From IMG/VR virus record IMGVR_UViG_2531839178_000016: a stretch of DNA of 16,801 nt; one strand, 5' to 3'. A program made the position numbers and the translations under genes. This DNA comes from a virus (lineage: Duplodnaviria; Heunggongvirae; Uroviricota; Caudoviricetes). This document shows, piece after piece, positions 2,589-16,801 of the stretch. Position 1 is the stretch's first letter. Every line of letters begins with the position of its first letter. The notes beneath the pieces are model-generated. The model was not told where the DNA came from, did no database searches, and saw only the letters and a list, made by a program, of their open reading frames with translations.

Positions 2589-3190
2589 GACACGGCCTCG
2601 CTGCTATTTTCCGTGGTGGCGTGAATTTTCGCTTCCGCCGTGGCCTTGTTTCTGGCAGCTTTCTTTTTGACAAAATCAAGCGTTTTGACAGCTTCTTCCT
2701 GACTGAGATATTCATGTGATGCAATCGTGCGACGGAATGTTTTGGAACATAAGGGAAGCAGGTCATCCCATGTCTTGTTAATTTCGGTGATTGCCTGAGT
2801 GATCTCATTGATAATCTCATCTGATGCGGGAGTGACGTCACGCTCAGGGATGTGATCAGCATTCAGGATGATACCTTCACCGGCCTGAGTGTTCAGGTAG
2901 TCGATAGCTGTATCCAGGCGATCGCGACGGGGCCAGTATTTGCTGGCGCGCTTAACAATGGCTTTTCTGGCCATTTCATCGGGGAAACTATCCCACGGGC
3001 TACTTCCTCCGTTATTTCCGGCTTTGCTGCACGCCCTGATGACCTCGATTTCCCTGTTGCTCATCTCTTCGGTCAGATAGTCGCCTTCGGATGTTTTTAC
3101 GACACAATAACCGCCAATGCGTGCGCCCCTGTCTACGAATGGGTTGTATTTGTGCGTGGGGGCGCAGTCAATACCGTTGGACTCGTAAAT
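2585..3190 (-). pseudogene. recT: recT/bet-type single-strand annealing protein, C-terminal two-thirds (5-prime end removed by IS600 insertion at 3190/3191)
   Basis: The reading frame is open from the IS600 boundary: IYESNGIDCAPTHKYNPFVDRGARIGGYCVVKTSEGDYLTEEMSNREIEVIRACSKAGNNGGSSPWDSFPDEMARKAIVKRASKYWP..., which parallels E. coli RecT (...VTHVYAVARLKDGGTQFEVMTRKQIELVRSLSKAGNNGPW...MAKKTAIRRLFKYLP). The N-terminal part is at 11944..12291. Confidence 0.8.
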
Positions 3191-3254
3191 TGAGGTAGCC
3201 TGAGTTTAACGGACACTCCTTCCTGAAATAGAATGGCATCAGAAGGAGCTAATA

Positions 3255-3517
3255 ATGAGCAGAAAAACCCAACGTTACTCTAAAGAGTTCAAAGCCGAAG
3301 CTGTCAGAACGGTTCTTGAAAATCAACTTTCGATCAGTGAAGGCGCTTCCCGATTATCCCTTCCTGAAGGCACTTTAGGACAATGGGTTACCGCCGCCAG
3401 AAAAGGACTCGGTACTCCTGGTTCCCGCACGGTGGCTGAACTGGAATCTGAAATTCTGCAACTGCGTAAGGCGTTAAATGAAGCTCGCCTTGAGCGAGAT
3501 ATATTAAAAAAAGCAAC
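3255..3517 (+). pseudogene. IS600 orfA, interrupted by IS30 after ...ERDILKKAT
   Basis: MSRKTQRYSKEFKAEAVRTVLENQLSISEGASRLSLPEGTLGQWV... is the IS600 OrfA sequence. The frame reads into the IS30 terminal repeat at 3518. The remaining orfA codons (AYFAQESLKNTR*) resume after IS30 at 4741. Confidence 0.85.
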
Positions 3518-4738
3518 TGTAGATTCAATTGGTCAACGCAACAGTTATGTGAAAACATGGGGTCGCGGAGGTTTTTTGAATGAGACGAACATTTACAGCA
3601 GAGGAAAAAGCCTCTGTTTTTGAACTATGGAAGAACGGAACAGGCTTCAGTGAAATAGCGAATATCCTGGGTTCAAAACCCGGAACGATCTTCACTATGT
3701 TAAGGGATACTGGCGGCATAAAACCCCATGAGCGTAAGCGGGCTGTAGCTCACCTGACACTGTCTGAGCGCGAGGAGATACGAGCTGGTTTGTCAGCCAA
3801 AATGAGCATTCGTGCGATAGCTACTGCGCTGAATCGCAGTCCTTCGACGATCTCACGTGAAGTTCAGCGTAATCGGGGCAGACGCTATTACAAAGCTGTT
3901 GATGCTAATAACCGAGCCAACAGAATGGCGAAAAGGCCAAAACCGTGCTTACTGGATCAAAATTTACCATTGCGAAAGCTTGTTCTGGAAAAGCTGGAGA
4001 TGAAATGGTCTCCAGAGCAAATATCAGGATGGTTAAGGCGAACAAAACCACGTCAAAAAACGCTGCGAATATCACCTGAGACAATTTATAAAACGCTGTA
4101 CTTTCGTAGCCGTGAAGCGCTACACCACCTGAATATACAGCATCTGCGACGGTCGCATAGCCTTCGCCATGGCAGGCGTCATACCCGCAAAGGCGAAAGA
4201 GGTACGATTAACATAGTGAACGGAACACCAATTCACGAACGTTCCCGAAATATCGATAACAGACGCTCTCTGGGGCATTGGGAGGGCGATTTAGTCTCAG
4301 GTACAAAAAACTCTCATATAGCCACACTTGTAGACCGAAAATCACGTTATACGATCATCCTTAGACTCAGGGGCAAAGATTCTGTCTCAGTAAATCAGGC
4401 TCTTACCGACAAATTCCTGAGTTTACCGTCAGAACTCAGAAAATCACTGACATGGGACAGAGGAATGGAACTGGCCAGACATCTAGAATTTACTGTCAGC
4501 ACCGGCGTTAAAGTTTACTTCTGCGATCCTCAGAGTCCTTGGCAGCGGGGAACAAATGAGAACACAAATGGGCTAATTCGGCAGTACTTTCCTAAAAAGA
4601 CATGTCTTGCCCAATATACTCAACATGAACTAGATCTGGTTGCTGCTCAGCTAAACAACAGACCGAGAAAGACACTGAAGTTCAAAACACCGAAAGAGAT
4701 AATTGAAAGGGGTGTTGCATTGACAGATTGAATCTACA
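3518..4738 (+). mobile_element. IS30 (complete, 1221 bp) nested in IS600; flanked by 2-bp duplication AC
   Basis: Terminal repeats TGTAGATTCAATTGGTCAACGC (3518) and GCATTGACAGATTGAATCTACA (ends 4738). AC is present on both flanks (3516..3517 and 4739..4740). Confidence 0.95.
3580..4731 (+). CDS. insI: IS30 transposase (383 aa)
   Basis: Full-length ORF with N-terminal HTH and C-terminal DDE-type catalytic domain, bounded by IS30 inverted repeats. Identical translation to the copy at 13238..14389. Confidence 0.95.
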   Translation: MRRTFTAEEKASVFELWKNGTGFSEIANILGSKPGTIFTMLRDTGGIKPHERKRAVAHLTLSEREEIRAGLSAKMSIRAIATALNRSPSTISREVQRNRGRRYYKAVDANNRANRMAKRPKPCLLDQNLPLRKLVLEKLEMKWSPEQISGWLRRTKPRQKTLRISPETIYKTLYFRSREALHHLNIQHLRRSHSLRHGRRHTRKGERGTINIVNGTPIHERSRNIDNRRSLGHWEGDLVSGTKNSHIATLVDRKSRYTIILRLRGKDSVSVNQALTDKFLSLPSELRKSLTWDRGMELARHLEFTVSTGVKVYFCDPQSPWQRGTNENTNGLIRQYFPKKTCLAQYTQHELDLVAAQLNNRPRKTLKFKTPKEIIERGVALTD

Positions 4739-4815
4739 ACAGCGTATTTTGCACAGGAGTCGCTGAAAAATACGCGTTAATCGAACAATGGCGACAACAA
4801 TTTCCCATTGAAGCG

Positions 4816-5634
4816 ATGTGTCAGGTATTTGGTGTATCCAGGAGCGGTTATTACAACTGGGTACAGCATGAACCCTCAGACAGAAAACAAAGTGATGAGC
4901 GGCTAAAACTGGAGATTAAGGTGGCACATATCCGCACTCGCGAAACATATGGAACCCGGCGGCTCCAGACGGAGCTGGCAGAGAATGGCATCATCGTTGG
5001 TCGTGACCGACTGGCACGTCTTCGTAAGGAGCTAAGGCTACGCTGTAAGCAGAAACGCAAGTTCAGAGCGACTACGAACCCGAACCACAATCTGCCAGTT
5101 GCGCCAAATCTGCTGAACCAGACGTTCGCTCCTACAGCACCAAATCAGGTCTGGGTGGCGGACCTGACGTATGTTGCCACACAGGAGGGATGGTTGTACC
5201 TCGCTGGCATCAAAGATGTTTATACGTGCGAAATTGTCGGCTACGCCATGGGAGAGCGCATGACAAAAGAGCTGACAGGTAAAGCCCTGTTTATGGCGCT
5301 CAGGAGCCAGCGCCCACCTGCCGGGCTAATCCACCACTCTGATCGAGGTTCACAGTACTGCGCATACGATTACCGGGTCATACAGGAGCAGTTTGGTCTG
5401 AAAACATCAATGTCGCGTAAAGGTAACTGTTACGACAACGCTCCGATGGAAAGCTTCTGGGGAACGCTGAAAAATGAGAGCCTGAGCCACTATCGTTTTA
5501 ATAACCGGGATGAAGCCATCTCAGTAATACGGGAATACATTGAGATTTTCTACAATCGTCAGCGTCGTCACTCTCGTCTGGGGAATATCTCCCCGGCAGC
5601 CTTCAGGGAAAAATATCATCAGATGGCTGCTTAA
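4816..5634 (+). CDS. IS600 transposase OrfB frame (DDE integrase); the OrfAB fusion is prevented by the IS30 insertion
   Basis: 272-aa ORF with IS3-family motifs (WVADLTYV, HSDRGSQYCA, GNCYDNAPMESFW). Matches recalled IS600 OrfB. Confidence 0.85.
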   Translation: MCQVFGVSRSGYYNWVQHEPSDRKQSDERLKLEIKVAHIRTRETYGTRRLQTELAENGIIVGRDRLARLRKELRLRCKQKRKFRATTNPNHNLPVAPNLLNQTFAPTAPNQVWVADLTYVATQEGWLYLAGIKDVYTCEIVGYAMGERMTKELTGKALFMALRSQRPPAGLIHHSDRGSQYCAYDYRVIQEQFGLKTSMSRKGNCYDNAPMESFWGTLKNESLSHYRFNNRDEAISVIREYIEIFYNRQRRHSRLGNISPAAFREKYHQMAA

Positions 5635-7136
5635 AAAAAGAACAAATGGTAGTGTCCGCTATTGCCAGTACACCTCATTGACTTGATGAAATTGTGCACT
5701 TCAACCGAGGTTTGCAGCGGCGCGTTACTGAAGCCTTTAGGCCACACCCCGAACTTCTCTTTGTAGGTATGAGCGCACCATCCGTCACTCAGTGGCTTAC
5801 CTGTCGCGTTGCGGTAATTCTGATAGCCCTTGATCTCACTCCACCACCGCTGTTTTTCCTCACGGCTGTATTCGCGTTTCCCTTTGTTTACGCGAGAGAG
5901 TTTTCGATCGCGGTCTGTTGCCACATCATCGCCACCAAGAGGACGAAACCCACATTTGGGACACATGTGTACACCAGCAGGCTTCATGAAGTGGCATTTG
6001 GGGCATTCTCTGGGAAGTTTTTCAGCTTTAACCTCGCCACCGCCAGCAGACGCTTTCATTCCGTCATTTTTGCCCGGCAGTTCGTCATACTCGATATCCT
6101 CGGGGAAACCCAGCCGATGAACCGTGCCAGAATGGTCGAAAATCAACGCACGTTGTTTACCTGGGGCTGTACGTAACGCTCTACCTATGCACTGCAACCA
6201 ACGGATTTCTGATTTTGTCGGACGGGCATAGATCAGGCAGCGAACATCGCTGTCAAATCCCGCAACCAGTACGCCGACGTTGACAATTATTTTGGTCACG
6301 CCCTCTTCAAAACGGCGAATGATGTCCTGTCGTTCATCATGGAGGGTATCTGCCGTCATCACCTCTGCGCCAATACCGGCCTGTAAAAACTCACGGGTAA
6401 CAAAATTCGCATGCGCAACATTCACACAGAAGCAGATCGTCGGCAAATCCTCACCATTCTCAAGCCAGTTGCGAACGATATCGCCAACCAGATCCGAACT
6501 CCCCATGATGGATGCGAGCTGCTCCTCGTTGTAATCCCGTCCAAATACGGTGTTACTGGTTTTTACGCCAGCCAGATCAGGCATTGAGGGGGCAAAAAAC
6601 TCATAATCGCTCAGATCACCACGCTGAATAAGTTCACGAATCGTTGTAGGCTTGATCAGGCATTCGTAGTACTTCCCCATCCAGGCTGCGAACGGGGTAC
6701 CGGAAAGTCCAAGAACCCTGATGTCTCTGTCCCGGATAACCTCAAGTAACGCACGACGCTTCATGTGTGCTTCATCGATGATCAGCAGATCGATGTTGTT
6801 AGGAAACTCACGACGGATCAGCGTGTCGGCACTGGCAATCTGAATCAGTCGTGACGGGTCATAGTTAGGGTGATCACGCCATACAAAACTGATTTCTTCC
6901 CACGGCAAACCGTATTCGGTGAAACGTTCCGCTGTCTGGTTCAGCAGGATGGTGTACGGACAGACAAACATCACTCGCATACCACGTTCAACCATTCCGG
7001 CGGTGACGAATGCTGCAAGACCAGTTTTGCCAGAGCCAGTGGGTGCATACATCAGGTACGTGCGATGCTGTTTCCACTGGTGCCGCAGCTGGTTTAAACC
7101 GCGCTCCTGAGCAAAGTTTGGGATTATTTTCAGCAT
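5631..7136 (-). CDS. SF2 DEAH-box helicase (ResIII-like core plus C-terminal zinc ribbon); native 3-prime end replaced by IS600 sequence from 5677 downward
   Basis: Motif I APTGSGKT, motif II LLIIDEAH, motif III SGTPF, motif VI QCIGRALR, then CPKCHF...CPKCGF zinc ribbon. The last about 15 codons (MRCTGNSGHYHLFFF) lie in the IS600 right end. Start overlaps the stop of the upstream 128-aa gene (ATGCTGA). Confidence 0.85.
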   Translation of the reverse strand: MLKIIPNFAQERGLNQLRHQWKQHRTYLMYAPTGSGKTGLAAFVTAGMVERGMRVMFVCPYTILLNQTAERFTEYGLPWEEISFVWRDHPNYDPSRLIQIASADTLIRREFPNNIDLLIIDEAHMKRRALLEVIRDRDIRVLGLSGTPFAAWMGKYYECLIKPTTIRELIQRGDLSDYEFFAPSMPDLAGVKTSNTVFGRDYNEEQLASIMGSSDLVGDIVRNWLENGEDLPTICFCVNVAHANFVTREFLQAGIGAEVMTADTLHDERQDIIRRFEEGVTKIIVNVGVLVAGFDSDVRCLIYARPTKSEIRWLQCIGRALRTAPGKQRALIFDHSGTVHRLGFPEDIEYDELPGKNDGMKASAGGGEVKAEKLPRECPKCHFMKPAGVHMCPKCGFRPLGGDDVATDRDRKLSRVNKGKREYSREEKQRWWSEIKGYQNYRNATGKPLSDGWCAHTYKEKFGVWPKGFSNAPLQTSVEVHNFIKSMRCTGNSGHYHLFFF

Positions 7137-7516
7137 GACGCCCCCTTGCTACGTGATTTACCCGTTGCCGGGATCACGTCGATCTCATCGCTAACGTATT
7201 GATCCGGATTACGTGAACAGCGCAGAAGCACGATACCAGGAATGCCGTATAGCTTGAGTCTGCGCAGTTTCAGTATTGAACGTGCCCGTGGTGACGCTCT
7301 GTCCACCTCGATCGCGCACCGTTCACCAGATGGGGCAACGACCATGATATCGACGAATCCGCGCTTACCGTTGCCCATATCAACCAGATAATTACGTTCG
7401 ATCGCCAGTCCGGCATCACGCAATTTGGCAGCCAGCACATAATCAAACGTGACCTTGTCTTTTCCGGTGTAGAATTTGTTTCCGAGCAGGCTGATAACCA
7501 CATGTTTGATGAACAT
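7130..7516 (-). CDS. hypothetical protein (128 aa), translationally coupled to the helicase; possible nuclease-like fold (very tentative)
   Basis: ORF with ATG start and coupled stop/start overlap with the helicase. Contains D...E.D spacing (GFVDIMVV...AIEVD) reminiscent of, but not diagnostic for, PD-(D/E)xK nucleases. Confidence 0.5.
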   Translation of the reverse strand: MFIKHVVISLLGNKFYTGKDKVTFDYVLAAKLRDAGLAIERNYLVDMGNGKRGFVDIMVVAPSGERCAIEVDRASPRARSILKLRRLKLYGIPGIVLLRCSRNPDQYVSDEIDVIPATGKSRSKGASC

Positions 7517-7697
7517 GGTACTATTTCCACCGTAATGGTTAGTGTAATAACAATTTCTCCAAAAACCATCTCACCCTATACAGTGATCTACCTAACCTAT
7601 GGAGCTGCCTTCCTCTGGTAGTGCCCTTACAGGCACGGATGTTACAGATCTGCCCCCTTACCCCCTTCTTAGTAAAATTTCAAGCGCAATGGTTTCA

Positions 7698-7714
7698 TGT
7701 GAAATCATTTCACA
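7698..7714. repeat. perfect 17-bp palindrome TGTGAAATCATTTCACA (candidate operator or protein-binding site)
   Basis: Read directly from sequence. Lies in the 220-bp intergenic region between the 93-aa gene and the 128-aa/helicase genes. Confidence 0.6.
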
Positions 7715-7736
7715 AAAATAATCACCTTGATGAGAT

Positions 7737-8018
7737 CTATTCCTTCCGTATCGCTACTGGCGAAAGCATCCAGCCACGGCTGGCTCTCGCGTACTTCTGG
7801 ACATACACCCGTAACCGGGTGTTGGCGCTCCGTCTTGCCCTGTTGCCCTTCCTGAACGATACAGGCTCCTTGTCCCACTCTTCCTGGTACACTCTCGCGT
7901 ACTCTGCTGCAATTTTTACCCTGGTGGTCGGGTCTAGCTGTAACAATTGCTCCTGTATCCAGTCCCGATCAGCATCACAGTACTGATCGGGCATAACCGT
8001 TTTGATTTGCCTGTTCAC
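7737..8018 (-). CDS. hypothetical protein (93 aa) in the cII-equivalent position; GTG start
   Basis: GTG start preceded by GGAGG at 5-nt spacing, 22 bp downstream of the cro-like stop on the same strand. Charged helical-looking sequence, no recognisable family. Confidence 0.5.
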   Translation of the reverse strand: MNRQIKTVMPDQYCDADRDWIQEQLLQLDPTTRVKIAAEYARVYQEEWDKEPVSFRKGNRARRSANTRLRVYVQKYARASRGWMLSPVAIRKE

Positions 8019-8040
8019 TCACACCTCCGATGGAGGGTTA

Positions 8041-8280
8041 TCAGGCTGTTTGCCTTACATGAAGCGGAATACCATCTTCCATGTTTAGGTAGTCATGCGG
8101 GTTTAGTTCATGGGGAGTTACATTCCAGTCTGTAGCTTTTGCCCATTCAATGGCTTTCCGCCCCTGAGGCATGTATCTCCCTGTAATAACCCCACTGACA
8201 AATCCCTGAGAAACTCCAACAATCGCCGCAAAATCGGCTTGTCTGATAGAGCTTTGTCTCAAGTACTCGTCAAGAGTCAT
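8041..8280 (-). CDS. cro: Cro-like small HTH regulator (79 aa)
   Basis: Divergent from cI across a 105-bp region. Size and HTH-like segment (QADFAAIVGVSQGFVSGVITGRYMP) fit Cro/YdaS-type proteins. GGGAGG RBS 6 nt before ATG. Confidence 0.65.
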   Translation of the reverse strand: MTLDEYLRQSSIRQADFAAIVGVSQGFVSGVITGRYMPQGRKAIEWAKATDWNVTPHELNPHDYLNMEDGIPLHVRQTA

Positions 8281-8385
8281 AGAGATCCTCCCATTTCAAT
8301 TTTCCGATATTAGCTTACCTGATTTAAATGTCAATAGGCTAGCTATTTGATAAATATTTGTGTTGCTAATAAAATCGGAGGCACT
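8281..8385. promoter_or_regulatory. cI/cro divergent control region (PR- and PRM-like promoters; operator sites not resolved)
   Basis: Minus strand: -35 TTGACA (8329..8334), 16-bp spacer, -10 TAATAT (8307..8312), driving cro. Plus strand: -35 TTGATA (8347..8352), 17-bp spacer, -10 TAAAAT (8370..8375), giving a nearly leaderless cI transcript. Predicted start sites are about 82 bp apart. Confidence 0.6.
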
Positions 8386-9105
8386 ATGACGAAGAAAATT
8401 ACAATTACTGACAAAGACATCCAGAACGCTGAACGACTGCGCAAAATCTGGGATGAAAAACGGAAACAGCTATCCCTAAGCCAGGAAAAAGCCGCAGATA
8501 TCCTCGGCTTCAAAACGCAGGGGGCTGTTAGTCAGTTATTGAACGCAAAAATTGCGTTAAATACTGAAAATACCCTTAAGTTTGCGGCTTTATTACAGGT
8601 TCCTGCGGAAGAAATTAATCCAGATCTGAGTGATTTGTTACGCAGTATTCGTACCCACACACCGGGAAACAGGCGTAACCTGTTCGAGAAATATTACGAA
8701 TATCCGTTACTCTCCTGCGTACAGGCTGGAGCTTTCTCAATGGATGATTTTTCGTACACCGCAAAGGATGCGATTAAGTGGATCTCCACCACCACAAAAG
8801 CCAGTGACAGGTCGTTCTGGCTGGAGGTCAAGGGGCATTCAATGACCGCGCCGCAGGGTGGTAAACCCAGTTTCCCCGAAGGGATGCTGATACTCGTTGA
8901 CCCTGAGCGGGAGATTGAGGATGGCGATTTTTGCGTGGCCCGAATGAATGGCGATGAATTCACCTTCAAACGATTCATTCGTGAGAGCGGTAAAGCGTAC
9001 CTGGAGCCACTCAACCCACGATTCGACATGATTGAGTGTAACGAAAACTGCCAGTTTGTCGGAAAGGTCATAAAGTCGCAGTGGAATGATGAGACTTTTG
9101 ATTGA
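8386..9105 (+). CDS. cI: CI-type prophage repressor (HTH plus LexA-like S24 autopeptidase domain), 239 aa
   Basis: Co-linear with recalled lambda CI: Ala-Gly cleavage site (CVQAGAFS), catalytic Ser (GHSMTAP) and Lys (FTFKRF), [33 protein letters not shown] at 8386 preceded by GGAG. Confidence 0.9.
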
Positions 9106-9226
9106 ACTCACAGGATGATATCAATAACCTTGCAGGGAGGCTATTTTATTTCCTTTTTCAGCGAAAAATCTCCGAGAACCCTCGCCCAATGCGGGCGGGG
9201 AGCAGTCGCAATCAAGTGAGCCATAA

Positions 9227-9400
9227 ATGAACAAAGACAAATCCTTGACACAACAAGTGGAAGAAATACTTAGCAAGCAAAAAGTTAGCGAGCAAGGAAA
9301 AATGATTCAATCATTAAAGAACATGGGCTTGATCAACAAGCCTGTTTTTACTTTGGCTTATGGACCAGATATTACAACCTGCCAAATGCACCAATAACAA
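9227..9400 (+). CDS. candidate small ORF (58 aa) downstream of cI, ending at the terminator
   Basis: ATG-initiated open frame MNKDKSLTQQVEEILSKQKVSEQGKMIQSLKNMGLINKPVFTLAYGPDITTCQMHQ. Weak RBS. Below the length cutoff of the supplied ORF track. Confidence 0.35.
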
Positions 9401-9426
9401 AACCCGGCCTTGGTGCCGGGTTTTGT
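9399..9426. terminator. bidirectional intrinsic terminator between convergent cI and hicB
   Basis: AAAACCCGGCCTTGGTGCCGGGTTTT: 8-bp GC-rich stem, 6-nt loop, A-run upstream and T-run downstream. Confidence 0.7.
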
Positions 9427-9511
9427 TTGCCTCCTGCTCGCCCCACCATTTACCAGTGCGCCGTAAATTCCCCATTCTTCGGCGGTGAGGATGTCAAAGA
9501 CGAAGGGAACA

Positions 9512-9856
9512 TTAAGCCCCTGTGTGATGGTTGACTTCTTTTTCCAGCGCCTTATTAACAAAGGCGTTCAGTGATAAATCTTCTTCCATCGCCATTTCAG
9601 CGACCCGACGATGCAGTTCTGGATCAAGTCTGACGTTAAACACACCTTTAAACGGGGTATCAGGCTCCTTTCCATCCTCCACACAAGACTGTAAATACAG
9701 CTCAACCGATGTCTTAAACTCCTGTTCCAGTTCAGCTAATGTAGAAGCCTCATAAGTTACCAGGTCTCGAATAAACGCCAGTTTTCCGTACAGGATATTA
9801 TTTTCAAAATCTGGTTCTACTGTACCTAAATATCCTTTATATTTTAGATGATTCAT
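9512..9856 (-). CDS. hicB: HicB-family antitoxin (114 aa)
   Basis: N-terminal HicB fold motifs (YKGYLGTVE...FYGK...IRDLVTYEASTLAELEQEF) and C-terminal ribbon-helix-helix-like tail (FNVRLDPELHRRVAEMAMEEDLSLNAFVNKALE). Start overlaps the hicA stop (ATGA). Confidence 0.8.
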   Translation of the reverse strand: MNHLKYKGYLGTVEPDFENNILYGKLAFIRDLVTYEASTLAELEQEFKTSVELYLQSCVEDGKEPDTPFKGVFNVRLDPELHRRVAEMAMEEDLSLNAFVNKALEKEVNHHTGA

Positions 9857-10107
9857 AATACCCCAGCCTCTTTCAGATTCTGTTTAATCGCTTTCAGCGT
9901 TCCACCTTTAATATAACTTTCTGGATGTGGGCGATGCATTAATATGGTGTGGTTGATTTCAGCATTGAAAAACCGCACTCTTGAGCCCTGCATTTCCTTT
10001 TTGACATATCCCAGAGAGGAAAACAAAACGACCAACTCATCCCATTCAAACGTTTTTTTACTGTTTAAAAACTTTTCCAGTAGCTTATCTGCTTTCCCCA
10101 TACCCAC
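9853..10107 (-). CDS. hicA: HicA-family toxin (mRNA interferase), about 82-84 aa; start at GTG 10107 or ATG 10101
   Basis: C-terminal HicA signature (GSRVRFFNAEINHTILMHRPHPESYIKGGTLKAIKQNLKEAGVL). Toxin-first order with 4-bp overlap onto hicB. Confidence 0.8.
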   Translation of the reverse strand: MGMGKADKLLEKFLNSKKTFEWDELVVLFSSLGYVKKEMQGSRVRFFNAEINHTILMHRPHPESYIKGGTLKAIKQNLKEAGVL

Positions 10108-10136
10108 ATAATCTCATCTTCGCTACATTGCAACTA

Positions 10137-10165
10137 ATTATAGTTACAGGCGATGTTTTTGTCAA
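10137..10165 (-). promoter_or_regulatory. consensus sigma70 promoter for hicAB (-35 TTGACA, 17-bp spacer, -10 TATAAT)
   Basis: Minus strand reads TTGACAAAAACATCGCCTGTAACTATAAT about 30 bp upstream of the hicA start. Confidence 0.65.
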
Positions 10166-10256
10166 AAGCCACCAAGCCCGCTGGGTTCTCTTTGACTGTT
10201 CACTGCTTTTCTTAGTGTTATCAGGGGGTTCCCTCACACCAAATCTAACACAGAGT

Positions 10257-10283
10257 AACCGGCCTCAGCGCCGGTTTTTCTTT
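10257..10283 (+). terminator. orphan intrinsic terminator-like hairpin (plus strand)
   Basis: AACCGGC-CTCAGC-GCCGGTT followed by TTTCTTT. No obvious upstream plus-strand gene. Confidence 0.45.
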
Positions 10284-10730
10284 GCGCATCCTCCATAACT
10301 CACCACCTGCATTATCCTCGCTTATATTTTTTACATAAATAAATTAATCTAAAAATCAATCACATAGATTAAAATTAAATTATTAGTCTTACTATTAACT
10401 GCGATCAGTTGCGCTTATTATATTTTACCCAAGCCAGAAACATCGCGCCCTGACACAGGGCTACATAAATCAGTCGTACGGCGCGACTTAACCCGCCGCA
10501 AAATGCTCTTTAACAATCTGGAGCTTTACAGCGTCAATGACCTGTTTAGACCCCTACACGTAAACGTGCTGTATCATCGGGTGCGATCCGGTCGATGAGA
10601 GAGTATCCCCGCGCGAGAGCGAGAACGGCGTGAGAACGGGCAACACTGGCAGGAAGTTGGCGCTGACCAATACAGGGAATGTTTTGGGGTGCAGGCGGCA
10701 CCGCCAAAGCATTTCCGAGAAAGGACGATA

Positions 10731-10759
10731 TTGACTGCGTGTGATGTCGGGGCTATATT
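10731..10759 (+). promoter_or_regulatory. strong sigma70-type promoter upstream of rha (-35 TTGACT, 17-bp spacer, -10 TATATT)
   Basis: TTGACTGCGTGTGATGTCGGGGCTATATT read directly from the plus strand. Confidence 0.6.
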
Positions 10760-10819
10760 TGGCGAACACCTCATAAAACGGGTGCCGGGATTAGCACCCC
10801 GAAAGTTACTCGAGCGCAT

Positions 10820-10842
10820 AACCGCGCTGAAGCGGTTTTTTT
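10820..10842 (+). terminator. intrinsic terminator inside the rha leader, about 75 nt downstream of the predicted start site
   Basis: AACCGC-GCTGAA-GCGGTT followed by TTTTTTT. Flanked by an outer inverted repeat CGCATA...TATGCG. Confidence 0.6.
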
Positions 10843-11008
10843 ATGCGTAATGCACAGCCACATTCAAATTATGGTGAGGCGTGCGGGGCAGCCGCAAGGC
10901 TGGCCGGGTTCTCGAGTGACCGGTAGTGCTAACCCTGTGCGTCTCACCACCCATGAGATTAGCACCTCTGGTGGTGAGTTAATTAACTTATCACTTGAGG
11001 ATGTCATT

Positions 11009-11647
11009 ATGGCTACTACCCTTTCTCACCCTGACGTAACCATCGAAAATGGTCGCGCCGTCACTACTTCTATTTCGATTGCTGAGTTTTTTGGCAAGCA
11101 GCATCACCATGTTGTTCAGAAAATAGAATCCCTCGAATGCTCTGAGCAATTCTTAACCCGCAACTTTTCGCGGGTTAAATTCGAACACCGAGGCAATACC
11201 TATAACGCCTACCAAATCACCAAAAACGGCTTCGTTTTTCTGGTGATGGGCTTCACCGGCAAAAAAGCAGCTGCATTCAAGGAAGCCTACATTGCTGAAT
11301 TCGATCGCATGGAAAAACAACTATGGGAACAGAAACAACTGGCCCTGTCTTCTCCTGCGATGAATATCAATTTCCCTTTATCGTGGTTTTCAGAGCATCA
11401 CCCCTATGCCACGATGAACTATGTTGATAGAAATACATTGCAGCTTGATACCTCCGTCTTATTCGACATGCCAAGCCCTGCAATGCGCATATTTAATGAA
11501 TTACGTCGTAACGGCTATAACGTCGATGCGGCTGTCGCCGAATTTAACGCCTTCAAGCATCTGACGGAAGAAATGCGCCGTAAATTGCTGGATATTTCCT
11601 GCACATCGGAAAAGTCTTCCCGCTTTGGTTTCAACGTTAATCTTTAA
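11009..11647 (+). CDS. rha: Rha-family phage regulatory protein (212 aa)
   Basis: N-terminal Rha-type region (VTTSISIAEFFGKQHHHVVQKIESLECSEQFLTRNF...YQITKNGFVFLVMGFTGKKAAAFKEAYIAEFDRME). Start ATG at 11009 chosen for GAGG RBS at 8-nt spacing; the longer ORF from 10850 overlaps the structured leader. Confidence 0.75.
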   Translation: MATTLSHPDVTIENGRAVTTSISIAEFFGKQHHHVVQKIESLECSEQFLTRNFSRVKFEHRGNTYNAYQITKNGFVFLVMGFTGKKAAAFKEAYIAEFDRMEKQLWEQKQLALSSPAMNINFPLSWFSEHHPYATMNYVDRNTLQLDTSVLFDMPSPAMRIFNELRRNGYNVDAAVAEFNAFKHLTEEMRRKLLDISCTSEKSSRFGFNVNL

Positions 11648-11655
11648 TTAACCCC

Positions 11656-11678
11656 ATCCCCGATCACATATCGGGGAT
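11656..11678. repeat. 23-bp hairpin palindrome ATCCCCGAT-CACAT-ATCGGGGAT just after rha (weak terminator or binding site)
   Basis: 9-bp perfect stem, 5-nt loop, AT-rich flanks on both sides. The downstream T-run is imperfect. Confidence 0.4.
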
Positions 11679-11717
11679 TAAATTAAATATCTGGATTAAT
11701 TAACCGGAGGATTTGTC

Positions 11718-11783
11718 ATGCTCAAACCTCACTACGGAACCGCATTAGTTTCTCGCGAGGACGTTAAACCCCATTGCTTATGA
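11718..11783 (+). CDS. candidate micro-ORF (21 aa) with strong RBS
   Basis: GGAGG 7 nt upstream of ATG. Stop overlaps the start of the next ORF (ATGA). Confidence 0.3.
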   Translation: MLKPHYGTALVSREDVKPHCL

Positions 11784-11926
11784 GCAGCCTTTTTTTACCC
11801 AAAGAAGCCCAACTGGCACTCACTGGCGAAAAAGCTGAAGAGGCGTACAACGATTATATCTCAGCGATCGCCTATGCTCGGGCGGAAGAAGAATGGGAGA
11901 GAAAATTCTCCCCCTGTCCTTTCTGA
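11780..11926 (+). CDS. candidate small ORF (48 aa) immediately upstream of recT
   Basis: MSSLFLPKEAQLALTGEKAEEAYNDYISAIAYARAEEEWERKFSPCPF. Coupled to the preceding micro-ORF. Occupies the position of gam/kil/cIII-type small genes. Confidence 0.35.
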   Translation: MSSLFLPKEAQLALTGEKAEEAYNDYISAIAYARAEEEWERKFSPCPF

Positions 11927-11943
11927 TTTTCAGGACCAAAAAA

Positions 11944-12291
11944 ATGTTCGATATCGTTGAATTTGTTAAGCAGCAGGAGCGCTTTTTCTGCAAGGCATTA
12001 ACTGAACCGACGCTGACATGGGCGAAGGAAAGTCAGTTTGCAATTCAGCAATTCCAGAAAAATGCCTTTCTGGCTGACACAGCACGGGCAAATCTGCCCA
12101 GCGCACAGAACGCTATCATCAATGTTGCCGCCATCGGCATAACCCTGAACCCGGCCAGCAAGCTGGCGTATCTGGTCCCACGAAAAAAGGCTGTATGCCT
12201 GGATATCAGTTATATGGGGCTTCTGCATCTGGCACAGGTCACAGGAGCCATTCAGTGGGGGCAATGCAAACTTGTTTACGAGAAGGACATT
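11944..12291 (+). pseudogene. recT: recT/bet-type single-strand annealing protein, N-terminal third (3-prime part removed by IS600 at 12291/12292)
   Basis: ...NAIINVAAIGITLNPASKLAYLVPRKKAVCLDISYMGLLHLAQVTGAIQWGQCKLVYEKDI parallels the RecT N-terminal region (SAIVQCSQLGLEPGS...AYLLPFG...GYRGMIDLARRSGQI...VVREGDE). The frame runs into the IS600 end. An alternative start at 11893 is possible. Confidence 0.75.
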
Positions 12292-12334
12292 TGAGGTGTA
12301 CTGGCAATAGCGGACACTACCATTTGTTCTTTTT

Positions 12335-13153
12335 TTAAGCAGCCATCTGATGATATTTTTCCCTGAAGGCTGCCGGGGAGATATTCCCCAGACGAGAGTG
12401 ACGACGCTGACGATTGTAGAAAATCTCAATGTATTCCCGTATTACTGAGATGGCTTCATCCCGGTTATTAAAACGATAGTGGCTCAGGCTCTCATTTTTC
12501 AGCGTTCCCCAGAAGCTTTCCATCGGAGCGTTGTCGTAACAGTTACCTTTACGCGACATTGATGTTTTCAGACCAAACTGCTCCTGTATGACCCGGTAAT
12601 CGTATGCGCAGTACTGTGAACCTCGATCAGAGTGGTGGATTAGCCCGGCAGGTGGGCGCTGGCTCCTGAGCGCCATAAACAGGGCTTTACCTGTCAGCTC
12701 TTTTGTCATGCGCTCTCCCATGGCGTAGCCGACAATTTCGCACGTATAAACATCTTTGATGCCAGCGAGGTACAACCATCCCTCCTGTGTGGCAACATAC
12801 GTCAGGTCCGCCACCCAGACCTGATTTGGTGCTGTAGGAGCGAACGTCTGGTTCAGCAGATTTGGCGCAACTGGCAGATTGTGGTTCGGGTTCGTAGTCG
12901 CTCTGAACTTGCGTTTCTGCTTACAGCGTAGCCTTAGCTCCTTACGAAGACGTGCCAGTCGGTCACGACCAACGATGATGCCATTCTCTGCCAGCTCCGT
13001 CTGGAGCCGCCGGGTTCCATATGTTTCGCGAGTGCGGATATGTGCCACCTTAATCTCCAGTTTTAGCCGCTCATCACTTTGTTTTCTGTCTGAGGGTTCA
13101 TGCTGTACCCAGTTGTAATAACCGCTCCTGGATACACCAAATACCTGACACAT
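12335..13153 (-). CDS. IS600 transposase OrfB frame
   Basis: Translation identical to 4816..5634. Confidence 0.85.
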   Translation of the reverse strand: MCQVFGVSRSGYYNWVQHEPSDRKQSDERLKLEIKVAHIRTRETYGTRRLQTELAENGIIVGRDRLARLRKELRLRCKQKRKFRATTNPNHNLPVAPNLLNQTFAPTAPNQVWVADLTYVATQEGWLYLAGIKDVYTCEIVGYAMGERMTKELTGKALFMALRSQRPPAGLIHHSDRGSQYCAYDYRVIQEQFGLKTSMSRKGNCYDNAPMESFWGTLKNESLSHYRFNNRDEAISVIREYIEIFYNRQRRHSRLGNISPAAFREKYHQMAA

Positions 13154-13230
13154 CGCTTCAATGGGAAATTGTTGTCGCCATTGTTCGATTAACGCGTATT
13201 TTTCAGCGACTCCTGTGCAAAATACGCTGT

Positions 13231-14451
13231 TGTAGATTCAATCTGTCAATGCAACACCCCTTTCAATTATCTCTTTCGGTGTTTTGAACTTCAGTGTCTT
13301 TCTCGGTCTGTTGTTTAGCTGAGCAGCAACCAGATCTAGTTCATGTTGAGTATATTGGGCAAGACATGTCTTTTTAGGAAAGTACTGCCGAATTAGCCCA
13401 TTTGTGTTCTCATTTGTTCCCCGCTGCCAAGGACTCTGAGGATCGCAGAAGTAAACTTTAACGCCGGTGCTGACAGTAAATTCTAGATGTCTGGCCAGTT
13501 CCATTCCTCTGTCCCATGTCAGTGATTTTCTGAGTTCTGACGGTAAACTCAGGAATTTGTCGGTAAGAGCCTGATTTACTGAGACAGAATCTTTGCCCCT
13601 GAGTCTAAGGATGATCGTATAACGTGATTTTCGGTCTACAAGTGTGGCTATATGAGAGTTTTTTGTACCTGAGACTAAATCGCCCTCCCAATGCCCCAGA
13701 GAGCGTCTGTTATCGATATTTCGGGAACGTTCGTGAATTGGTGTTCCGTTCACTATGTTAATCGTACCTCTTTCGCCTTTGCGGGTATGACGCCTGCCAT
13801 GGCGAAGGCTATGCGACCGTCGCAGATGCTGTATATTCAGGTGGTGTAGCGCTTCACGGCTACGAAAGTACAGCGTTTTATAAATTGTCTCAGGTGATAT
13901 TCGCAGCGTTTTTTGACGTGGTTTTGTTCGCCTTAACCATCCTGATATTTGCTCTGGAGACCATTTCATCTCCAGCTTTTCCAGAACAAGCTTTCGCAAT
14001 GGTAAATTTTGATCCAGTAAGCACGGTTTCGGCCTTTTCGCCATTCTGTTGGCTCGGTTATTAGCATCAACAGCTTTGTAATAGCGTCTGCCCCGATTAC
14101 GCTGAACTTCACGTGAGATCGTCGAAGGACTGCGATTCAGCGCAGTAGCTATCGCACGAATGCTCATTTTGGCTGACAAACCAGCTCGTATCTCCTCGCG
14201 CTCAGACAGTGTCAGGTGAGCTACAGCCCGCTTACGCTCATGGGGTTTTATGCCGCCAGTATCCCTTAACATAGTGAAGATCGTTCCGGGTTTTGAACCC
14301 AGGATATTCGCTATTTCACTGAAGCCTGTTCCGTTCTTCCATAGTTCAAAAACAGAGGCTTTTTCCTCTGCTGTAAATGTTCGTCTCATTCAAAAAACCT
14401 CCGCGACCCCATGTTTTCACATAACTGTTGCGTTGACCAATTGAATCTACA
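13231..14451 (-). mobile_element. IS30 (complete, 1221 bp) nested in IS600 copy 2
   Basis: Same terminal repeats as 3518..4738. Same right-hand junction sequence (ACAGCGTATT) as copy 1. Confidence 0.95.
13238..14389 (-). CDS. insI: IS30 transposase (383 aa)
   Basis: Translation identical to 3580..4731. Confidence 0.95.
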   Translation of the reverse strand: MRRTFTAEEKASVFELWKNGTGFSEIANILGSKPGTIFTMLRDTGGIKPHERKRAVAHLTLSEREEIRAGLSAKMSIRAIATALNRSPSTISREVQRNRGRRYYKAVDANNRANRMAKRPKPCLLDQNLPLRKLVLEKLEMKWSPEQISGWLRRTKPRQKTLRISPETIYKTLYFRSREALHHLNIQHLRRSHSLRHGRRHTRKGERGTINIVNGTPIHERSRNIDNRRSLGHWEGDLVSGTKNSHIATLVDRKSRYTIILRLRGKDSVSVNQALTDKFLSLPSELRKSLTWDRGMELARHLEFTVSTGVKVYFCDPQSPWQRGTNENTNGLIRQYFPKKTCLAQYTQHELDLVAAQLNNRPRKTLKFKTPKEIIERGVALTD

Positions 14452-14659
14452 GTTGCAGAATTTCAGATTCCAGTTCAGCCACCGTGCGGGAACCAGGAGT
14501 ACCGAGTCCTTTTCTGGCGGCGGTAACCCATTGTCCTAAAGTGCCTTCAGGAAGGGATAATCGGGAAGCGCCTTCACTGATCGAAAGTTGATTTTCAAGA
14601 ACCGTTCTGACAGCTTCGGCTTTGAACTCTTTAGAGTAACGTTGGGTTTTTCTGCTCAT
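14452..14659 (-). pseudogene. IS600 orfA fragment, shortened by a 55-bp deletion next to the IS30 IRL
   Basis: OrfA reads MSRKTQ...ELESEILQL and then meets IS30. Copy 1 has a further 18 codons (RKALNEARLERDILKKAT) before IS30. Confidence 0.8.
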
Positions 14660-14859
14660 TATTAGCTCCTTCTGATGCCATTCTATTTCAGGAAGGAGTG
14701 TCCGTTAAACTCAGGCTACCTCAAAGGACCGAACAAACGAAACAGCAATGAGACCGTTGCGAAAAGCGACAATAGACAAATTCCCTGAATATATCGACCC
14801 GCGCCTGCGTAATTACCGCTCACGCTATGGCGCTATCAGTAATGACTGAGGAATTTACC

Positions 14860-15804: not shown

Positions 15805-16687
<883 letters not shown>

Positions 16688-16691
<4 letters not shown>

Positions 16692-16801
16692 TTTTTCCAG
16701 AGGCGGTCGAACTCCGCCTTCGCAAAATAAGCGGAAGCCTGGCGAAGGATATCGTTACTGCGGCGCAGTTCACGATTTTCACGCTCCAGCTCTTTCAGAC
16801 G
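16688..16801 (-). CDS. IS629 orfA C-terminal part (partial at window edge)
   Basis: Minus-strand translation ...[37 protein letters not shown] with the A-run frameshift motif (GGAAAAAATGATG) at the orfA/orfB overlap. Confidence 0.8.

Follow-up and report, generated by a model that had tools for sequence, protein, structure and literature searches.

The DNA analysed here, hereafter the window, measures 16,801 nucleotides and shares 97% identity with the immunity region found in Stx2a-converting phages from the genus Oslovirus (Sepvirinae), among them F039 and Lyz12581Vzw. Positions 8281–8385 of the window form a 105-bp noncoding gap with a G+C content of 33%, bounded by the start codons of two divergent genes, a cro-like gene (ATG at 8280, minus strand) and cI (ATG at 8386, plus strand). 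The genes, and the promoters and operators predicted between them, are as follows:

8280–8041, minus strand: cro-like gene, an open reading frame of 79 aa with a Pfam HTH_3 domain, assigned to PHROG 35 ("transcriptional repressor")
8287–8292, minus strand: GGGAGG, Shine-Dalgarno sequence of the cro-like gene, read from the sequence, 6 nt 5' of its ATG
8307–8334, minus strand: PR-like promoter, −35 TTGACA (8334–8329), 16-nt spacer, −10 TAATAT (8312–8307), 10 of 12 consensus positions
8308–8324, no strand: predicted OR1-equivalent operator, TATTAGcttacCTGATT, overlapping the PR −10, centred at −16 relative to the predicted PR start
8332–8348, no strand: predicted OR2-equivalent operator, CAATAGgctagCTATTT, sharing 3 bp with the PR −35 and 2 bp with the PRM −35, centred at −42 relative to the predicted PRM start
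8347–8375, plus strand: PRM-like promoter, −35 TTGATA (8347–8352), 17-nt spacer, −10 TAAAAT (8370–8375), 10 of 12 consensus positions
8355–8371, no strand: predicted OR3-equivalent operator, TATTTGtgttgCTAATA, between the PRM −35 and −10, centred at −19 relative to the predicted PRM start
8377–8381, plus strand: Shine-Dalgarno-like GGAGG, 4 nt upstream of the cI start codon, past the −10 but ahead of the predicted start
8386–9105, plus strand: cI repressor gene, 239 aa, HTH_3 and Peptidase_S24 domains

The cI product has the two-domain composition of the lambda CI (LexA-like) type, with Pfam matches to HTH_3 (E = 3e-7) and Peptidase_S24 (E = 2e-28). Its full length aligns with lambda CI at 50% identity, and its best match in the PDB, also full-length, is the intact lambda repressor 3BDN (E = 4e-74). 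In an alignment to lambda CI the Ala-Gly cleavage site and the catalytic Ser and Lys are kept, within the motifs VQAG(A/M)FS, G(H/N)SMTAP and FTFK(R/K); the roles of these residues are established for lambda CI and LexA. Residues E34 and D38, which form the positive-control patch of lambda CI, are present as well. The recognition helix reads QGAVSQ where that of lambda reads QSGVGA, a difference from which the first-pass annotation had predicted that the operators should also differ, as the predicted ones do. On the other side of the gap, the 79-aa HTH_3 protein is a candidate lytic repressor of the YdaS/Cro type, and its helix, SQGFVS, is kept in relatives having the same operators. The open reading frame that follows cro belongs to PHROG 852, of unknown function, and has no Pfam match. 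A search for the lambda CII box TTGC-N6-TTGC found none, and neither a recognisable cII homologue nor a PRE-like establishment promoter was identified when these were looked for; unlike lambda, the window thus lacks this box and a recognisable cII, as well as rexAB and N, and it carries HicAB cargo between cI and the left operators.

Promoters were predicted by a scan for the sigma-70-like consensus, with +1 set seven nt after the −10 hexamer and a range of 6–8 nt tried. By this rule the cI transcript would start at 8382 (range 8381–8383) and the cro transcript at approximately 8300 with a leader of 20 nt, the two starts lying 82 bp apart. A divergent pair of equal quality with starts 60–100 bp apart arose in 0.055% of 20,000 dinucleotide-preserving shuffles of the gap (P = 0.00055). 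Divergent promoters with starts about 82 bp apart, and a cI transcript beginning 3–4 nt before its ATG, had been proposed in the first-pass annotation; as predictions both are borne out, the second in the form of a distance of 3–5 nt over the +1 range tried. Applied to lambda as a control, the same +1 rule recovers the known starts, that of PR and, 83 positions away, the A of the cI start codon. The predicted sites therefore have the arrangement of a lambda-type switch, divergent PR and PRM promoters between cro and cI. The PR-like hexamers are kept in relatives, and the pattern TTG-N16/17-TAAA(A/G)T at the PRM-like promoter is kept in four lineages. By the same count that gives the PRM-like promoter 10 of 12 consensus positions, lambda PRM scores 8 of 12; being so near consensus, the promoter of the window may not need activation.

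The three predicted operators are 17-bp dyads with the consensus TATTAG-N5-CTAATA, each fitting the core pattern ATTAG-N5-CTAAT with one or two mismatches. They are separated by 7 and 6 bp (24 and 23 bp centre to centre), and their centres fall at −19, −42 and −66 relative to the predicted PRM start. Over the whole window, core-pattern matches with up to two mismatches number 8 against 6.1 expected, which is not significant by itself, and the case for the operators is built instead on clustering, local shuffles and conservation; in local shuffles, three matches within the gap have a probability of 0.0006. The first-pass annotation had resolved no convincing 17-bp repeats by eye and missed these sites, recording in their place an imperfect symmetry, TAGCTTACC...GGCTAGCTA. 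As a functional unit this symmetry is rejected, as its central bases are not conserved in relatives; it consists of the TAG/CTA edges of two adjacent operators together with those bases.

Set against the annotated lambda record (NC_001416), the layout is the one that had been claimed for it. Lambda OR1, OR2 and OR3 are likewise 17 bp long with gaps of 7 and 6 bp; OR2 shares 3 bp with the PR −35 and 2 bp with the PRM −35 and is centred at −42 of PRM; OR3 sits between the PRM −35 and −10; the centres lie at −19, −42 and −66 of PRM in both phages; and the start sites are 83 bp apart in lambda and, as predicted, 82 in the window. The repressor also resembles lambda CI as a full-length homologue that keeps the cleavage site, the catalytic Ser and Lys and the E34/D38 patch. 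What differs is the operator sequence, with half-sites of the TATCACCGC type in lambda. Because the lambda-like C-terminal domain is conserved, operator spacing is kept while operator sequence is not. Phages 434 and 933W share with the window a tripartite OR between divergent cI and cro and an S24-type repressor, but the 17-bp operators with 24-bp and 23-bp spacing are those of lambda, unlike the arrangement in 434 and 933W; the operators of 434 are 14 bp. The 933W repressor, in addition, binds non-cooperatively (PMC5977221). Within the limited literature covered, where absence is not proof, operator mapping was found for lambda, 434, 933W and BAA2326 and none was found for the immunity type of the window. 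The operator sequences of the window differ from those of lambda and are apparently undescribed, which would make this an immunity region of new specificity.

Conservation of the sites was followed in relatives whose repressors carry the same recognition helix, TQGAVSQ, and whose N-terminal domains are 78 to 56% identical to that of the window. These are a Salmonella contig (L004; N-terminal domain 78% identical), a metagenomic contig from Logan (L005; 65% in a local BLASTP alignment, 56% in an alignment with the N-terminal region of the window repressor) and a prophage of E. coli A34 with a different backbone (L009; CI 65% identical). Such useful intermediates came from a large protein search and from E. 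coli genomes; tblastn against phages returned copies of the N-terminal domain that were either identical or below 60% identity, and the same domain, used against species-representative genomes, gave one irrelevant match, in Lachnospiraceae. All three relatives carry these three operators, with a spacing of 24 or 25 bp followed by 22 or 23 bp. Across the window and these relatives, 31 of the 36 outer operator columns are invariant as against 0 of the 15 central columns (Fisher P = 5e-9), and A at position 2 together with G at position 6 is found in every one of 32 half-sites. The relatives' sites were found with a pattern derived from the window, so that this footprint is not fully independent; two results mitigate this. 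A weight matrix made from the relatives' sites only ranks the five proposed operators of the window (three in the gap and two on the left, described below) 1 to 5 among approximately 16,800 positions, with a doubtful left site sixth. The other is the control provided by phage P13374, also below. In a Serratia relative the helix is altered (TQSTVSQ), and the inverted repeats of the gap are different ones. The metagenomic contig (849–1271, protein P0004) encodes a repressor of 140 aa that has the same N-terminal domain, helix and three operators without Peptidase_S24 and with a different C-terminal tail; its gene adjoins cro and a Phage_CII gene, and the spacing of its −10 TAAAGT, 6 nt from the ATG, is the exact leaderless spacing of lambda.

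The first-pass annotation had suggested searching the gap for motifs together with the sequence upstream of rha. The search was productive, yielding two strong sites and one weaker site at a PL-like promoter. The features of this left region are as follows:

10310–10326, no strand: possible third left operator, weaker, CATTATcctcgCTTATA, 71 bp upstream of OL2, sixth-best score
10381–10397, no strand: predicted OL2-equivalent operator, TATTAGtcttaCTATTA, overlapping the PL-like −35, top-scoring 17-mer of the window with the matrix from relatives only
10395–10424, plus strand: PL-like promoter, TTAACT, 18-nt spacer, TATATT, directed toward isrK, the C4 RNA and rha/ant
10403–10419, no strand: predicted OL1-equivalent operator, GATCAGttgcgCTTATT, between the PL-like −35 and −10, 22 bp centre to centre from OL2
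10766–10842: isrK, Rfam match above the gathering score
10867–10954: C4 antisense RNA, Rfam match above the gathering score
11009–11647: rha/ant (Rha/anti-repressor-like gene), just downstream of isrK and the C4 RNA

Three pattern matches thus fall within 108 bp at a promoter-like site approximately 2 kb from OR (P = 0.003 in local shuffles). A second set of operators with the same recognition sequence on an early-left promoter is also what lambda has, about 2 kb from OR, and the left cluster with its promoter is the putative OL/PL equivalent of this locus. It differs from lambda OL in its 22-bp spacing and its uncertain third site: a third operator adjoining OL1 and OL2 was sought, and what was found is the weaker site 71 bp upstream, which is also present in F039 and E. 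coli JNEC-KY204 and was not found in the E. coli A34 prophage. The left arrangement itself recurs in that prophage and in the relatives L001 and L010; in the A34 prophage two left sites 22 bp apart lie on a TTGACA-17-TTTAAT promoter with the operators placed as in the window. A 7-bp inverted repeat, TAATCTA...TAGATTA (10346–10372), lies between the doubtful third operator and OL2. Downstream of the PL-like promoter, which would be controlled by CI, the isrK/C4/rha block looks like an antisense control module of the P1 immI type; the block also has a promoter-like site of its own matching 10 of 12 consensus positions (10731–10759).

The interval between cI and the left operators is occupied by cargo genes. 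In the window these are a HicA/HicB toxin-antitoxin pair (9512–10107, minus strand) preceded by a perfect consensus promoter, TTGACA-17-TATAAT (10137–10165, minus strand), and in relatives the same slot holds a BsuBI-type restriction-modification system or a pair of Panacea-domain genes. An extra good operator match lies upstream of the Panacea-domain cargo gene in L010 (ATCAGTTTTGCTAAT, 6944–6958) and in L001 (ATCAGTTTTTCTAAT, 9827–9841), which suggests that CI may also regulate this cargo in those two relatives. The Panacea-domain gene pair and its operator match are absent from the window.

A sister phage with another specificity is available for comparison. The published OR1, OR2 and OR3 of the E. 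coli O104:H4 Stx2 phage BAA2326 are matched exactly in the cro-cI gap of P13374, and the switch of P13374 is therefore the one studied as BAA2326. Like the window, P13374/BAA2326 has an Oslovirus backbone with helicase/primase replication genes and three OR sites, which in BAA2326 were footprinted by Chakraborty et al. 2018 (PMC5977221). From about residue 103 onward the C-terminal domains of the P13374 and window repressors are virtually identical, whereas their N-terminal domains are only ~38% identical. The P13374 gap is 71 bp long against 105 bp in the window, and its operators (ATAACTGTGCGTAATG, ATATCTGCGGTGTTGAC, CCTTTGGTTATATGTAAT) lie at equivalent positions but are unrelated in sequence to those of the window. 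Conversely, the operator pattern of the window has 0 matches in 12 kb of the P13374 locus, against 4.7 expected. Membership of the window in the BAA2326/P13374 immunity group is accordingly rejected, since none of the three BAA2326 operators occurs in its gap and the N-terminal domain is so divergent. The sense primer of the published BAA2326 qPCR matches the window exactly at 9022–9045, but just the C-terminal half of cI is common to the two. On the left, the homology between P13374 and the window starts at the edge of OL1 (window position 10418). This homology break, with the different N-terminal domain and operators, indicates that the window and P13374 are heteroimmune, and the co-variation indicates that N-terminal domain, OR and OL were exchanged as one module, the classical signature of an immunity region. 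At the position in P13374 equivalent to OL1 of the window (5989–6005), between the −35 and −10 positions of its counterpart to the PL-like promoter, lies AATCACCGCAAGTTATA, a 14/17 match to lambda OR3. A second dyad, GCACC...GGTAT, lies about 24 bp upstream of it at about 5965–5982. In the 2018 study no OL was readily identifiable in BAA2326 (PMC5977221); the AATCACCGCAAGTTATA site may be that OL.

Taken together, the gap is very probably the right-operator switch of a lambdoid Sepvirinae/Oslovirus prophage of the Stx type, scrambled by insertion sequences, which follows the plan of lambda with a different DNA-binding specificity and with predicted binding and start sites. What is directly observed is the architecture, how it is conserved and how it co-varies with the N-terminal domain of CI; binding, cooperativity, activation and start sites are what we infer, the mechanism by comparison with lambda and with the BAA2326 repressor, a close relative. 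That repressor binds three OR sites, cooperatively at OR1 and OR2, activates PRM from OR2 and represses it at OR3 (PMC5977221). By the same analogy, CI dimers of the window would recognise the TATTAG-N5-CTAATA dyads and, bound at 8308–8324 and cooperatively through the lambda-like C-terminal domain at 8332–8348, would block the PR-like promoter. The centrally bound dimer, at −42, would touch RNA polymerase at the PRM-like promoter through the acidic patch of E34 and D38, and at higher CI levels 8355–8371 would be filled and PRM shut off. Cooperativity, activation from OR2 and repression at OR3 are thus predictions drawn from the C-terminal domain, the E34/D38 patch, the operator at −42 and the behaviour of BAA2326. 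The same CI would close the PL-like promoter some 2 kb away through 10381–10419, with looping between OR and OL possible, and in the lytic direction these operators would also be the target of the cro-like protein. Transcription from PRM would start 3–5 nt before the ATG and give a message lacking the GGAGG, and only transcripts from further upstream, such as establishment transcripts, would be translated through it.

The setting of this switch is heavily rearranged. The immunity region is flanked, at 3190–5677 and 12292–14724, by a composite insertion sequence present in two inverted copies that are 100% identical, each an IS3-family element with an inserted IS30-family element. The recT gene is split into parts at 11893–12294 (plus strand) and 3064–2585 (minus strand): its N-terminal part adjoins the inner end of the right copy, while the C-terminal part and exo are found beyond the left copy, on the other strand. 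Considered with the gene order of F039 and P13374, the split recT indicates an IS-mediated inversion of approximately 5678–12291. The 3' end of the helicase gene is cut by an insertion sequence, and further debris at 1–278, 360–1199 and 15805–16733 includes a third IS30 end (identical to 14162–14439) and another IS3-family orfB; an IS3-family element carries an ALIL frameshift pseudoknot (16617–16733). Among complete E. coli genomes compared with window positions 5500–12450, none matched end to end, the best match having 91% coverage and 93.5% identity. It is possible, though on balance somewhat unlikely, that the architecture survives in a dead remnant, in which inversion and truncation have uncoupled the switch from the lytic programme and the sites are relics without current selection. 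The flanking identical composites, the split recT and the cut helicase gene speak for this, but cI, cro, all operators and both promoters are intact and are 97–99.6% identical to their versions in inducible Stx2a phages and in E. coli prophages, and a resident CI would still give immunity and regulate the left operon. The question also concerns the present use of the feature, not its identity. In a rearranged and maybe defective prophage, the right-operator switch may now serve immunity alone.

How the cI message begins bears on a second alternative. In the window 10 nt separate the −10 from the cI ATG (CGGAGGCACT), and the predicted 5' UTR is 3–5 nt; the corresponding −10 to ATG distances are 9 nt in the Salmonella relative, 8 nt in the E. 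coli A34 prophage, and 6 nt in the metagenomic contig and in lambda, where no GGAGG intervenes as it does in the window. The family thus spans the range from true leaderless geometry to a short leader. The Shine-Dalgarno sequence reads GGAGG in both the window and F039, is shortened to GAGG in the Salmonella relative, and is absent from the A34 prophage and the metagenomic contig. Since GGAGG lies upstream of the predicted +1, it would be absent from the PRM transcript and usable just by transcripts starting further upstream, perhaps in the manner of lambda PRE transcripts. Of the first-pass description of cI as nearly leaderless, the short predicted leader stands and strict leaderlessness, with a start at the A of the ATG and a 6-nt spacing, does not; the predicted message is leaderless-like only.

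It is unlikely, in our judgement, that the switch is lambda-like but its cI message leadered, transcribed from a start further upstream or from another promoter, with ribosomes recruited in the ordinary way through GGAGG at 8377–8381, as happens in 434 and 933W. A Shine-Dalgarno sequence is indeed well placed in the window, F039 and the Salmonella relative, and the cI mRNAs of 434 and 933W carry one (PMC5977221). The consensus scan also found a weak plus-strand promoter-like site inside cro (8195–8223, 9 of 12 positions) that could give leadered transcripts. Yet the scan detected no other −10 with a usable −35 upstream in the gap, TTG-N16/17-TAAA(A/G)T is kept in all four lineages, the A34 prophage and the metagenomic contig combine the lack of a Shine-Dalgarno sequence with spacings of 8 or 6 nt that leave no room for a leader, and the cI mRNA of BAA2326, whose repressor has the same C-terminal domain, is without a Shine-Dalgarno sequence (PMC5977221). 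As GGAGG is conserved, some cI translation is probably Shine-Dalgarno-led, and if polymerase were to start unusually far upstream, the cI message would not be leaderless-like.

That the dyads are chance symmetries of the gap, with CI binding elsewhere or through another motif, is extremely improbable: gap and motif are both AT-rich, the loose pattern is not enriched over the whole window and weak symmetry does not prevent binding by repressors of this group, as the BAA2326 operators show, but against this stand the local-composition shuffles of the gap and of the left cluster, the contrast between invariant outer and variable central columns, the relatives-only matrix that recovers exactly the proposed sites, the lack of any match in the heteroimmune P13374 and a spacing and promoter overlap equal to those of lambda.

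The lambda-plan switch read here belongs to an ordinary lambdoid immunity region and is conceptually no departure from the lambda paradigm. Its immunity type is found in 23 records of sequenced Stx2a-converting phages, and 17 of 5,426 complete E. coli genomes carry it as well, a number of which bear the serogroup label O145, O103 or O111. We suggest tentatively that the Shine-Dalgarno sequence has been placed inside the PRM discriminator, such that the maintenance message, with its leader of 3–5 nt, would be poorly translated in a leaderless-like manner and just establishment or read-through transcripts would carry the ribosome-binding site; the series of 6-, 8-, 9- and 10-nt spacings could then set repressor levels and the "hair-trigger" inducibility of Stx2a prophages in O145, O103, O111 and O26 strains. 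In Stx phages the repressor-operator switch controls the release of Shiga toxin (PMC5977221). With the operators, promoters and left operator set stated to the base, the locus offers targets for footprinting and for a "hair-trigger" comparison with BAA2326 and 933W. It is also a clean natural case of modular exchange, in which the N-terminal domain, OR and OL have been swapped while the C-terminal domain and the operator spacing have stayed constant.
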